Positions 10,689 to 12,833 are shown, numbered from the stretch's first letter. The stretch: 64,000 nucleotides of DNA from Candidatus Moranbacteria bacterium CG06_land_8_20_14_3_00_40_12 (GCA_002780175.1 PEVT01000048.1:8754-72753), one strand, 5' to 3'. The notes: generated by a model from the sequence alone, not told the origin. Translations and numbers: made by a program.

Positions 10689-12833
10689 ATGCATAATTTA
10701 AGCCCTCAAGAAGCCAAAATAAGGATTGAAAAACTAAGCCGGGAGATCGACCGGCTGCGATACGAATATCACGTTTTAGATAATCCGGAAATAACGGATG
10801 AAATTTACGATTCCTTGACGAAGGAATTGCGGGAACTGGAAGAAAAATTCCCTCAATTCAAAGTATCTTTCAGCCCGACTCAAAGAATAGGCGGCAAACC
10901 TTTGGATAAATTCGTCAAAGTCAGGCATATCATCCGTCAATGGTCCTTTGATGATGTTTTTGATTTTGGAGAACTTAAAAAATGGGAAGAAAAAATTCAA
11001 AGGATGATTGAAAAAAACACCACCCCGGCCTCCGGCTTCCCCTCCTTAGATAAGGAGGGGAAGAAGGGGGAGGTGGGCTTTTGTTGCGAATTGAAAATCG
11101 ACGGATTAAAGATAATTTTAGCTTATGAAAAAGGCGTTTTTGTCCGGGGAGCGACGCGGGGGGACGGGACTATCGGAGAAGATGTGACGGAAAATTTAAA
11201 AACTGTTCAGAGTCTTCCGCTTAAACTCAATCAACCAGTAACTTGCGTCGTAGTGGGAGAGTGTTTTCTTTCTAAAAAAGAATTAGACCGGATTAATCGG
11301 CAAAGGAAAAAAAATAACGAACTGCTATTTGCCAATTCGCGCAACGCGGCCGCCGGCTCTATCCGCCAATTAGATCCAAAAATTGTCGCCGGAAGAAAAT
11401 TGGACAGTTTTATTTACGACATTGATTATTTGGAAGATAAAAATTTAATGCCAATCAATCAAATAGAAGAATTGGAATTTTTAAAAAAACTGGGTTTTAA
11501 AACCAATTCTCAATATAAATTTTGCCTTAATATTGAAGAAATAAACGATTATTATCAAAAATGGGCGCGAAAAAAAGACCGGGAAGAGTATGGAATTGAC
11601 GGAGTGGTAATCAAGATTAATTCCCGCTCAATTCAAGAAGCCCTGGGCTATACCGGCAAGGCGCCTCGATGGGGAGTAGCCTATAAGTTTCCGGCGGAAA
11701 AATCTGCTACGGTAGTGGAAGGAATTCAGTTGCAAGTCGGCCGAACCGGCGCTTTAACGCCGGTAGCCAAATTGCGCCCGGTGCGCGTGGCCGGTTCGAC
11801 AGTCAGCCGGGCGACACTGCACAACGAGGATGAAATTATCCGGCTGGGATTAAAAATCGGGGATACGGTGGTGATTCGCAAAGCCGGCGATGTCATTCCG
11901 GAAGTGGTGGAAGTGATGAAAAACTTAAGAACCGGCCAAGAAAAAAAATTCCGGATGCCGGATTTTTGTCCGATTTGCGGCGGTTCGCTCAAAAAAGAAA
12001 TAATTAATGCGAAAAATAAAAAAGAAAGCGCTAATTATTATTGTCTGAATAAAAATTGTTTGGCCGTAAAAAAGGAAGAGATTATCCATTTTGTTTCTAA
12101 AAAAGGATTTAATGTCGAAGGCTTGGGCGAAAAAATCGTCGAGCGGTTGATCGGCGAAGGCTTAATCAAACAGGCGGCGGATATCTTTGATTTAAAAAAG
12201 AGCGATCTGGAACCCCTGGAAAGGTTCGCGGAAAAATCGGCGCGAAATATAATTGAAGCGATTGAAAAAAACAAAAAAATCAGCCTGGAGAAATTTTTAT
12301 ACGCCCTGGGCATCCGGCATGTCGGCGAAGAAACGGCCGTATTAATTGGTAAAAATATTAATGCGAAAGTTTCAAGTTTCAAGTTTCAAGTTTCAAGTTT
12401 AGGAGATGTTATTAAAATTTTTCCTCGCATTCAAAAAGAAGACTGGAGGCAAATTAAAGGCATTGGAGACAAGATGGCGGAAAGCTTGAATTTATGGCTT
12501 AATAACCAAAAAAATCTGGCTATGCTTGAAAAAATGAAGGCTTTGGGCGTAGAAGTTTTAATTCCCAAATTATCTGGCTATGCCAGATCTGGCGAAGCCA
12601 GACAAGGTAAATTTCAAAGAAAAACCTTTGTATTAACGGGAGAATTGAAAAGCTTTACAAGAGACCAAGCCAAAGATATGATTAGGAGAGAAGGGGGGAA
12701 TGTTTCCAGTTCAGTCAGCGCGAAGACCGATTATGTTTTGGCGGGAGCCAATCCGGGATCAAAGTATGCTAAGGCGAAAGAACTGGGCGTTAAGATTATG
12801 AAAGAAGATCAGTTTAAAGATTTAATAAAATAG
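10689..12833 (+). CDS. ligA: NAD-dependent DNA ligase LigA
   Basis: Adenylation motif ELKIDG, OB fold, Zn finger (CPICGG...C), HhH and BRCT domains. Carries two in-frame palindromic inserts (11022-11078 and 12588-12602) and a 7-nt x4 repeat at 12368-12400. Confidence 0.9.

Follow-up and report, generated by a model that had tools for sequence, protein, structure and literature searches.

A 64,000-nucleotide stretch of DNA from Candidatus Moranbacteria bacterium CG06_land_8_20_14_3_00_40_12 (GCA_002780175.1 PEVT01000048.1:8754-72753), referred to below as the window, contains short GC-rich palindromes and A/T-rich arrays with a 7-nt period. These repeats lie between genes, in the 23S ribosomal RNA (rRNA) gene, and in frame within conserved protein-coding genes (Table 1). 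The window has a GC content of ~38% and encodes a type IV pilus cluster, ligA, gatCA, gyrB, a type I restriction-modification system, a 23S-5S rRNA operon, and cell-wall genes that include two neighboring family 4 glycosyltransferases (GT4). Homologues of LigA and GT4 carry the names Candidatus Moranbacteria or Parcubacteria, and the corresponding locus of the NCBI assembly GCA_002771255.1 is conspecific (99.96% identity). An initial sequence-only reading of this DNA had proposed that one kind of palindrome is inserted in frame in four genes. Each sequence that it quoted is present where it had been placed and the in-frame inserts are real, but the items that it listed are heterogeneous and do not represent a single element.

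In-frame inserts in conserved proteins

The LigA protein of the window matches E. coli LigA (2owo) with E = 1e-149 and has three extras relative to it, namely 16 residues before the KxDG strand, ~15 in the HhH domain, and 4 in the HhH-BRCT linker. These insert sites are hot spots with lineage-specific content in 25 Moranbacteria orthologs. In an AlphaFold2 model made from an ortholog alignment, the predicted local distance difference test score (pLDDT) is <50 at amino acids 111-126 (site 1) and 628-638 (linker), and the HhH region is in part poorly modeled as well. For the first GT4 enzyme (GT4#1), pLDDT is <50 only at amino acids 167-194 and 316-338, which are the two elements described below, and the rest of the model is confident. 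Mapped onto structure in this way, the LigA and GT4#1 inserts occupy low-confidence loops.

The core of the first ligA insert, CTTCCCCTCCTTAGATAAGGAGGGGAAG, forms a perfect 10-bp stem, and its encoded peptide falls shortly ahead of K136, the catalytic residue in the KIDG motif. This agrees with the original proposal for positions 11022-11078, an interval whose predicted RNA fold has an energy of -39 kcal/mol (z -4.7), but the hairpin is single-copy within the window. A codon alignment with four relatives places the insert in the window, L001, and L003 but not in L004 or L005, and E. coli LigA also lacks it. More broadly, it is limited to the three closest orthologs, and the next-closest (72-75% identity) do not carry it. 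The stem of 10 perfect base pairs in the window corresponds to one of 8 bp in L001 and is broken in L003. The 5' outer arm, CCGGCCTCCGG, is kept in the window, and its complement, CCGGAGGCCGG, is kept on the 3' side in L001; these split arms indicate that the ancestral palindrome was longer. Across 113 Moranbacteria LigA orthologs the site-1 segment ranges from 16 to 72 aa, with the basal length (16-18 aa) in 43 and unrelated inserts, recognizably derived from hairpins or heptamers, in ~60. No family was found for the site-1 hairpin in a metagenome scan with CTTCCCCTCC-N8-GGAGGGGAAG, which returned 73 stretches with unrelated loops and flanks and a mean GC content of 56%.

In the HhH-BRCT linker, the hairpin originally noted at 12588-12602 is real but does not stand alone, being the second half of a tandem pair that begins at 12573. 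The window has two linker hairpins, L001 has one, and L003-L005 have none; the window and L001 differ here by a clean 15-nt indel. Within the HhH domain, the AAGTTTC array occupies a position where other lineages carry other heptamer units; the sequence-only reading had passed over such 7-nt tandem arrays. In another assembly of the same species (L113) this array is shorter by 14 nt, or two AAGTTTC units, and ligA is frameshifted, yielding a 570-aa product (P0001, representing a cluster of 16 member sequences) and a 119-aa open reading frame (ORF) for the BRCT domain. This is either a real slippage variant of an essential gene or an assembly error. In-frame heptamer arrays (AAATGAC x4.6 and AAAATCC x3.6) also occur in gyrB (25802-27859) at 27510-27566, near the GyrB C terminus, and a 5-aa indel relative to the L005 GyrB ortholog falls in these arrays.

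Where a single GT4 gene had been assumed, there are in fact two adjacent genes, at 44441-45631 (GT4#1) and 46004/46097-47302 (GT4#2). The mechanically called GT4#2 ORF begins with TTG at 46004 and the orthologs of L006 and L007 begin at ATG 46097 (MTELKKD); the first 31 codons of the called ORF (46004-46096) are probably not translated. Of the GT4 palindromes proposed at the outset, that at 45379-45464 was recovered in the first gene and that at 46734-46750 in the second. GT4#1 also carries an 81-nt element (fold z -5.5) that had been overlooked. It is common only to the window, P0122, and P0152; at the same place (site A), L006 and L007 have palindromic elements unrelated to it, giving three different elements in three related genomes. 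A 26-nt stretch of the 81-nt element is identical in the Parcubacteria genome L044, and a 20-nt palindrome, CCTGCCTGCCGGTAGGCAGG, forms a discrete insertion in the L006 element relative to that of L007. The nested palindrome farther downstream is absent from P0122, the nearest GT4#1 ortholog, and from P0129, and other orthologs carry different elements at its site. Many unrelated inserts recur at the same protein sites. Separately, the GT4#1 genes of L006 (10001-11338; P0127), P0167, P0226, and P0238 contain a 105-nt (35-aa) insert with the ends GCCTGC...GCAGGC (ACDASFFSWALFIQKSLKSFGISTYYNQHSDAGGP); these four orthologs share the site, are not mutually closest relatives, and have an insert that looks like a Rickettsia palindromic element (RPE) in size.

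The inter-domain linker of GT4#2 is hypervariable, with different content in each of three relatives. Its insert is 90% identical to a copy in 23S rRNA (39/39 nt) and 90% identical over 71 nt to the orthologous site in L027. A further copy that had escaped notice lies in a small ORF, where the window and L006 differ by a clean 30-nt indel. This copy no longer folds significantly (z -1.0), and it is kept, also decayed, in L007, where its first hairpin is the same as in GT4#2. In L006 the empty site itself contains two heptamer units already. Overall, comparisons with orthologs reveal clean in-frame indels at hypervariable sites and show that the segments are not ancestral, and the elements of ligA, GT4#1, and 23S rRNA fold with z scores of -4.0 to -9.3.

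The prepilin leader presents another in-frame insertion, which places 50 additional residues after MNLEKNKK and before the GFTLIE cleavage motif. The window reads MNLEKNKKA[50 aa]KGFTLIE, compared with MNFPKKQKGFTFIE in an ortholog; ortholog leaders have 8-9 aa before GFT(L/F)IE, and the N_methyl motif of the window protein lies at amino acids 58-79. The CCTGTCGGCAGGCAGG module of this insert matches positions 47312-47335.

Table 1. Genes, inserts, palindromes, and repeat arrays of the window with their positions
Feature	Position	Strand	Remarks
ligA (NAD-dependent DNA ligase, 714 aa)	10689-12833	+	Pfam adenylation, OB, HhH, and BRCT domains; three inserts
ligA site-1 palindromic in-frame insert	11025-11072	+	core hairpin 11036-11063; partial outer arms 11029-11070
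ligA (AAGTTTC)x4.9 array	12367-12400	+	in frame, HhH domain; Tandem Repeats Finder (TRF) score 68
ligA double hairpin	12573-12602	+	HhH-BRCT linker; TCTGGCTATGCCAGA (12573-12587) + TCTGGCGAAGCCAGA (12588-12602)
Prepilin GC-rich in-frame insert, 150 nt	8842-8991	+	leader of ORF 8818-9543; opens with degenerate CCTGTCGGCAGGCAGG module
23S element resembling an intervening sequence (IVS), composite, 169 nt	32944-33112	+	apical loop of helix 25, Rfam large-subunit (LSU) model position 583
Paralogous IVS-like 23S element, 140 nt	33946-34085	+	apical loop of helix 45, model position ~1218; tip CCTGCCTGCCGGCAGGCAGG (34026-34045)
Decayed double hairpin, LDFAKSGEAK	39067-39096	+	in frame, small ORF 39043-39375; 3 mismatches to 23-nt core
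GT4#1 element, 81 nt (27 codons)	44939-45019	+	11-12-nt terminal inverted repeats GTCATTGCGAGC...CCTCGCAATGAC; VIASKAKQS...LPRND
GT4#1 nested palindrome KIPPSPPFAKGENNFSPFLKRRVGEGFS	45379-45464	+	single long hairpin, z -4.0
GT4#2 composite insert	46709-46800	+	inter-domain linker; double hairpin CTTGGTTGCGCCAAG + TCTGGCGAAGCCAGA (46720-46749), second hairpin TCCGCCAGCCGGCGGA (46764-46779), heptamer array (CAAAATT)x3 (46780-46800, TRF)
23-nt core, ligA copy	12583	+
23-nt core, 23S copy	33034	-
23-nt core, small-ORF copy	39077	+
23-nt core, GT4#2 copy	46730	+
Perfect 20-nt palindrome CCTGCCTGCCGGCAGGCAGG	47318-47337		intergenic, 16 nt past GT4#2 stop codon
22-nt palindrome GCCTGCCTGCCGGCAGGCAGGC	56220-56241		intergenic, 13 nt past stop of ORF 53736-56207

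Elsewhere, the window contains the type I restriction-modification operon with a PIN_12 gene between hsdM and hsdS, together with an Eco57I/MmeI-like fused restriction-modification gene (16657-24117 and 60696-63464), and a SocA/Panacea antitoxin-like gene at 24288-24782.

A double hairpin in protein genes, rRNA, and other genomes

The window has 42 GC-rich mini-hairpins (stem of 6 bp, loop of 3-5 nt) compared with 4.0 +/- 2.1 in local shuffles, which is an excess of ~10x. The best-defined module is a 30-nt double hairpin in which TCTSGC-NNN-GCSAGA is followed directly by TCTGGC-RAA-GCCAGA. It has a length of 10 codons, and its canonical form is open in 6/6 frames (no stop), compared with 4.4 in shuffles. 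The 23-nt core of this module, CCAAGTCTGGCGAAGCCAGACAA, has four copies in the window at <=3 mismatches, where 0 are expected. These repeat families are non-random. Since the copies lie in 23S rRNA, ligA, the small ORF, and GT4#2, the suggestion that one element has entered both rRNA and ORFs holds, as does the observation that a GT4 string is reversed inside the helix-25 insertion. Among the related loci L001-L007, neither GTCTGGC-N3-GCCAGAC nor GTCATTGCGAG was found apart from the orthologous ligA copy in L001, and these families are therefore lineage-restricted at that level.

The 23S rRNA gene spans 4384 nt, compared with 2925 positions in the model, for ~1460 nt of extra sequence altogether. 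The helix-25 element has 7-nt periodic arms and a tip (33036-33066) that is the double hairpin in reverse orientation, and its predicted fold is a single extended stem-loop (-88 kcal/mol, z -9.3). It is identical in the same-species assemblies L193-L196, and L197 has one single-nucleotide polymorphism just outside, at 33116. The helix-45 element, missing from the sequence-only reading, is likewise reproduced in L193-L196. By blastn the two elements are 90% identical over 150 nt, with arms of 78 nt and 41 nt that are 100% identical, and the tips alone differ. Helices 25 and 45 are classical IVS sites (PMC2801512, PMC4990558), and a survey of rRNA in the Candidate Phyla Radiation (CPR, or Patescibacteria) reported that short insertions other than introns are numerous there (sites 23IS2 and 23IS4; PMC11270868). 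The words "repeat" and "palindrome" are absent from the whole text of that survey. Classical IVSs are cut out by RNase III, the ends are not rejoined, and the 23S rRNA is left in pieces; by analogy, the 23S insertions of the window are probably removed by RNase III.

An apparent 79-nt polymorphism in the 23S gene of L195 proved to be a scaffold run of N. In the 5' domain, near-identical A/T-rich segments with a 7-nt period (TAAAATT x10) lie at 32188-32303 and 32501-32615, inside two additional insertions that measure 176 nt and 147 nt and are placed at model positions ~140 and ~285. Near the 3' end, a heptamer array at 36220-36247 has one TTTGGAA unit (7 nt) missing in L115.

The window was also compared with independent assemblies of its own species that are 99.9% identical to it (as many as seven for a given region), and every element was reproduced in these without indels in the GC modules. 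Only three indels were found altogether: the 14-nt difference in ligA, the 7-nt difference in 23S rRNA, and a 1-nt deletion at 6531, outside the heptamer arrays. Because independent assemblies agree, an assembly artifact is ruled out. Heptamer copy number is polymorphic within the species.

To follow the double hairpin more widely, one genome per species was scanned with the 18-mer TCTGGCRAAGCCAGACAA, which gave 107 matches in 105 stretches, compared with ~35 expected by chance. Of the 107 matches, 52 are immediately preceded by a second 15-nt hairpin, compared with 0.03 expected. In this sample, which was chosen for an intact second hairpin, the first hairpin is perfectly complementary in 48/52 copies, and its stem covaries (TCTCGC/GCGAGA, TCTGGC/GCCAGA, TCCCGC/GCGGGA, CTTGGC/GCCAAG). 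A taxonomic tally covered 35 titled loci, with ~15 further double-hairpin loci (L088-L111) outside it, and all 35 belong to Saccharibacteria, Parcubacteria-type phyla, unclassified "bacterium" metagenome-assembled genomes, or contigs that are probably mislabeled. Several genomes have 4-6 copies, and nine Saccharibacteria copies represent a common ~65-nt element with sharp boundaries. Viral contigs gave 0 matches to the 18-mer, and there is therefore no evidence for a phage vector.

Of these 52 copies, 20 fall well within ORFs that are 200 aa or longer (14 sense, 6 antisense), and all three sense frames are used, with translated readings that include LAxPDLAKPD and IWRSQT. Among the intragenic copies checked against Pfam, the host genes encode DnaE, RNase R, ValRS (two copies), SecA, ArgRS, and a CCA-adding enzyme. 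Thus, a wider search confirms that the double hairpin recurs across CPR phyla and does so inside essential genes. The 30-nt core is flanked by 7-nt direct repeats that are in phase across it, with a mean identity of 4.16/7 at offset 0 compared with 3.40 +/- 0.10 for permuted pairs, and real pairs peak again at offsets 7 and 14. Three contigs with other labels were also encountered. L055 (PEXD01000038.1, labeled Woesearchaeota) encodes a CCA-adding enzyme (PolyA_pol, HD) with the double hairpin and an LPTGRQ module, and L027 and L066 (CAYTIK01) are labeled Bdellovibrionales, with L027 having a GT4#2 ortholog in which the double hairpin occupies the corresponding site. All three are probably misbinned or mislabeled CPR contigs.

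One might suppose that nothing special has occurred, and that ordinary hypervariable linkers and rRNA variable regions have come to contain palindromes by chance, low complexity, or assembly error. The sites are indeed already known to be variable, namely helices 25 and 45 of 23S rRNA, the HhH-BRCT linker of LigA, and the inter-domain linker of GT-B enzymes, and the pilin insert is unstructured. However, the hairpin and fold statistics contradict chance, the independent assemblies agree, and the double hairpin recurs across genomes, all of which make this explanation very improbable.

A local, non-mobile origin deserves more attention, although it too is unlikely as a full account. Slipped-strand mispairing could generate the 7-nt arrays, template switching or fold-back synthesis could generate the palindromes, and their likeness could result from mutational or thermodynamic bias, as with the GCGAAGC mini-hairpin, which is very stable. 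Slippage is directly observed in heptamer arrays, the palindromes are nested, and the ligA site-1 hairpin has no family. Furthermore, when its loops are complementary the double hairpin becomes a perfect 30-nt palindrome, as from an inverted duplication, and such a palindrome (TCTGGCTTCGCCAGA + TCTGGCGAAGCCAGA) is found in L022, L049, L067, L069, and L074. Such a process cannot account for identical stretches of 18-39 nt at unrelated loci of one genome, for the same double hairpin in distant CPR phyla, for the sharp-edged copies at nine Saccharibacteria loci, or for the identical long arms at two 23S sites. Local slippage and template switching account for the heptamer arrays, and perhaps for the single-copy ligA site-1 hairpin, but not for the dispersed identical copies.

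Intergenic copies raise a different question. Intergenic DNA has 2.2 mini-hairpins per kb, and coding DNA has 0.3 per kb. The second module, the palindrome CCTGCCTGCCGGCAGGCAGG, lies just downstream from GT4#2. Further copies are at 56220-56241 and 34026-34045, with degenerate ones at 31622-31641 and 8846-8861, and the same module is the discrete insertion noted above in the L006 GT4#1 element. Intrinsic terminators were considered and rejected: terminator-like sites are not enriched in the window (29 vs 22 +/- 5.7), and the 47318 palindrome has no T-run on the sense strand. Directly after tRNA-Met, at 15489-15894, a 41-nt tandem repeat (x2.8) with GGCCAGCTAAGCTGGCC hairpins is followed by a 90-aa ORF that consists solely of a GIY-YIG domain and contains the hairpin CCGACGCTAAGCGTCGG. 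Among 18 non-ORF double-hairpin loci of other CPR genomes, none is in rRNA and several adjoin tRNA genes; the tRNA-adjoining intergenic copies are in L015, L023, L067, L074, and L089.

These locations suggest that the repeats might have a selected function, whether as a signal for RNA processing, stability, or termination, as a translation pausing site, or as a protein-binding or type IV pilus DNA-uptake signal, with the intragenic copies being tolerated or exploited. Most copies are intergenic, just past stop codons or beside tRNA genes, the stems covary yet stay perfectly paired, the 18-mer is nucleotide-exact across phyla, and the window encodes a type IV pilus cluster. Uptake sequences of Pasteurellaceae and Neisseria also occur within ORFs and as inverted pairs. 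Nevertheless, intragenic copies decay, copy positions are not conserved between relatives, terminators are not enriched, and the ~4-5 copies per 64 kb per family are far below the density of known uptake sequences. To our knowledge, that density is about 1 per kb, and uptake sequences are lineage-specific rather than common to several phyla. A selected role is quite improbable as a general explanation. It might apply to intergenic copies, whereas for intragenic copies it is unsupported because these decay.

Comparison with known repeats

RPEs are said to have been described by Ogata et al. in 2000. The parallel with them that had been drawn for this DNA holds at the level of behavior: palindromic families lie in frame in unrelated housekeeping genes, with other copies in RNA genes and intergenic DNA, the peptides fall where the fold is undisturbed, no associated transposase is known, and the host genome is reduced and dependent. 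Membership in an RPE family does not follow, given the unit length and frame use. RPEs are ~100-150 bp and belong to Rickettsia-specific families with a conserved peptide in one frame each. By description, the present repeats are distinct in having a 30-nt core (~65 nt with arms) that is read in three sense frames and antisense, and in being modular, with exchangeable tips, 7-nt periodic arms, and a core common to CPR phyla. In-frame palindromic repeats as such are already known from Rickettsia (PMC10969869).

Repetitive extragenic palindromic (REP) sequences can also be intragenic, and a GTAG or CGTC tag defines their two superfamilies (PMC3733652). Like REPs and their composites (bacterial interspersed mosaic elements, or BIMEs, and REPINs), the CPR repeats are GC-rich palindromes of 20-40 nt that are mostly extragenic, lie downstream from genes, and are often paired into larger hairpins, and some copies lie inside replication and repair genes. 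However, the repeats do not belong to the tagged REP families: neither tag occurs within 6 nt of an end in any of 54 double-hairpin copies (~6% expected at random), and no gene for the REP-associated tyrosine transposase RAYT was found among the window ORFs or in the Pfam annotation of same-species and syntenic loci. Unlike in REPs, each 15-nt unit is a complete hairpin and the flanks are in-phase 7-nt direct repeats.

The 23S elements share with the IVSs of Salmonella, Campylobacter, and Coxiella the same two sites, an extended stem-loop that replaces the apical loop, and a sporadic distribution that suggests mobility (PMC2801512, PMC4990558). They differ from known IVSs in being two paralogues with identical arms and different tips, one of which is a module that also lies inside protein genes. 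Terminal inverted repeats like those of miniature inverted-repeat transposable elements occur in the two GT4#1 elements (11-12 nt in the first), whereas the double-hairpin composite has direct-repeat flanks, and the window offers no candidate for a parent insertion sequence. DNA uptake sequences are also a poor match for a motif that has 4-5 copies per family in 64 kb and is common to several phyla.

GC-rich hairpins are further known from organelles, as yeast mitochondrial GC clusters and as the double-hairpin elements of Allomyces, with which the present module shares its architecture. As in those cases, the hairpins occupy an AT-rich, compact genome and enter not only intergenic DNA and rRNA genes but also, in frame, protein genes. 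Those repeats are organellar, though, their sequences are unrelated, and no organellar module is known to be common to phylum-level lineages. Plasmodium proteins carry low-complexity insertions that are homopolymer-like and of local origin. These resemble the CPR inserts as slippage-prone repeats of an AT-rich genome that are tolerated as loops in conserved housekeeping proteins, but they have no conserved palindromic core or dispersed identical copies. Mitochondrial DNAs provide additional examples, with repetitive hairpin-forming elements in sponges (PMC2800124) and coding palindromes in Nematomorpha (PMC6649704). For CPR bacteria, no account of such repeats in protein genes, or of their link to rRNA, was found in the searchable literature, which is incomplete. 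The initial claim of novelty may stand for repeats in protein genes but not for short rRNA insertions, which had already been reported in CPR bacteria (PMC11270868).

Origin and consequences of the repeats

The explanation favored here, at a probability judged to be slightly better than even, is that these sequences are modular palindromic repeats, selfish or neutral, that are kept at permissive sites and translated through. Their parts would be short GC-rich hairpin modules (the double hairpin and the 20-nt palindrome) and A/T-rich arrays of 7-nt period. Mobility is suggested because identical copies are dispersed, the indels are clean, the same sites have been occupied repeatedly and independently, and the tips behave like cassettes. 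Spread would occur at the DNA level, probably via hairpin or cruciform intermediates, and existing palindromes and heptamer arrays would be the preferred points of entry. Copies would survive only where the added sequence is harmless. The majority are intergenic. Others might be tolerated in 23S rRNA (the apical loops of helices 25 and 45), with RNase III probably excising them, or in the prepilin leader, which is cleaved off. In the linkers and surface loops of LigA and the two GT4 enzymes, copies could persist if their length is a multiple of three and the frame stays open. There they would be translated as disordered loops, and the hairpin would decay by mutation while the extra peptide stays. 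The copy number of the 7-nt arrays would shift by slippage.

Several observations weigh against this explanation. No transposase or other candidate mobilizing gene is present among the window ORFs, a fact that also suits a local origin, and the double hairpin has no terminal inverted repeats. The direct repeats that flank it vary in length (7-21 nt), unlike a classical target-site duplication of fixed length. Among the 99.9%-identical assemblies no presence/absence polymorphism of GC hairpins was found and heptamer copy number alone varies, and therefore recent movement is not demonstrated. The high proportion of perfect first hairpins could reflect selection for structure rather than youth. 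Also, the ligA site-1 stem is generic, and no repeat or mobile family is shown to include it. The pilin insert was rejected as a palindromic element since it has no global structure (z +1.1); the in-frame insertion proposed for that leader is genuine, but its palindromic character overall is not. Finally, translation through the inserts, like the neutrality of the repeats, is something we infer.

A bolder version of the favored explanation, which is doubtful, holds that translatable palindromes form a CPR-wide system that is still active. An enzyme recognizing hairpins or cruciforms would move the core into heptamer arrays and palindrome tips, thereby seeding rRNA expansions, IVS elements, and protein surface loops. 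The 7-nt arms would then serve as contingency loci that reversibly frameshift essential genes such as ligA.

CPR/Patescibacteria genomes are among the smallest and most streamlined of bacterial genomes, and yet repeat DNA is tolerated inside their DNA ligase, DNA polymerase III alpha, aminoacyl-tRNA synthetases, SecA, and ribosome. One mechanism would cover the rRNA insertions of these organisms, their lineage-specific protein inserts, and part of their length variation, which confuses alignments, phylogenies, and gene calling. As a practical matter, the double hairpin is a simple marker for CPR contigs and may flag misbinned ones, such as the "Woesearchaeota" and "Bdellovibrionales" records. 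The heptamer arrays imply that what looks like a frameshift in a CPR gene may be a genuine slippage variant. The repeats would represent the second independent bacterial case, after Rickettsia, of selfish DNA making new protein segments, and they point to a mobilization mechanism that acts at the DNA level.

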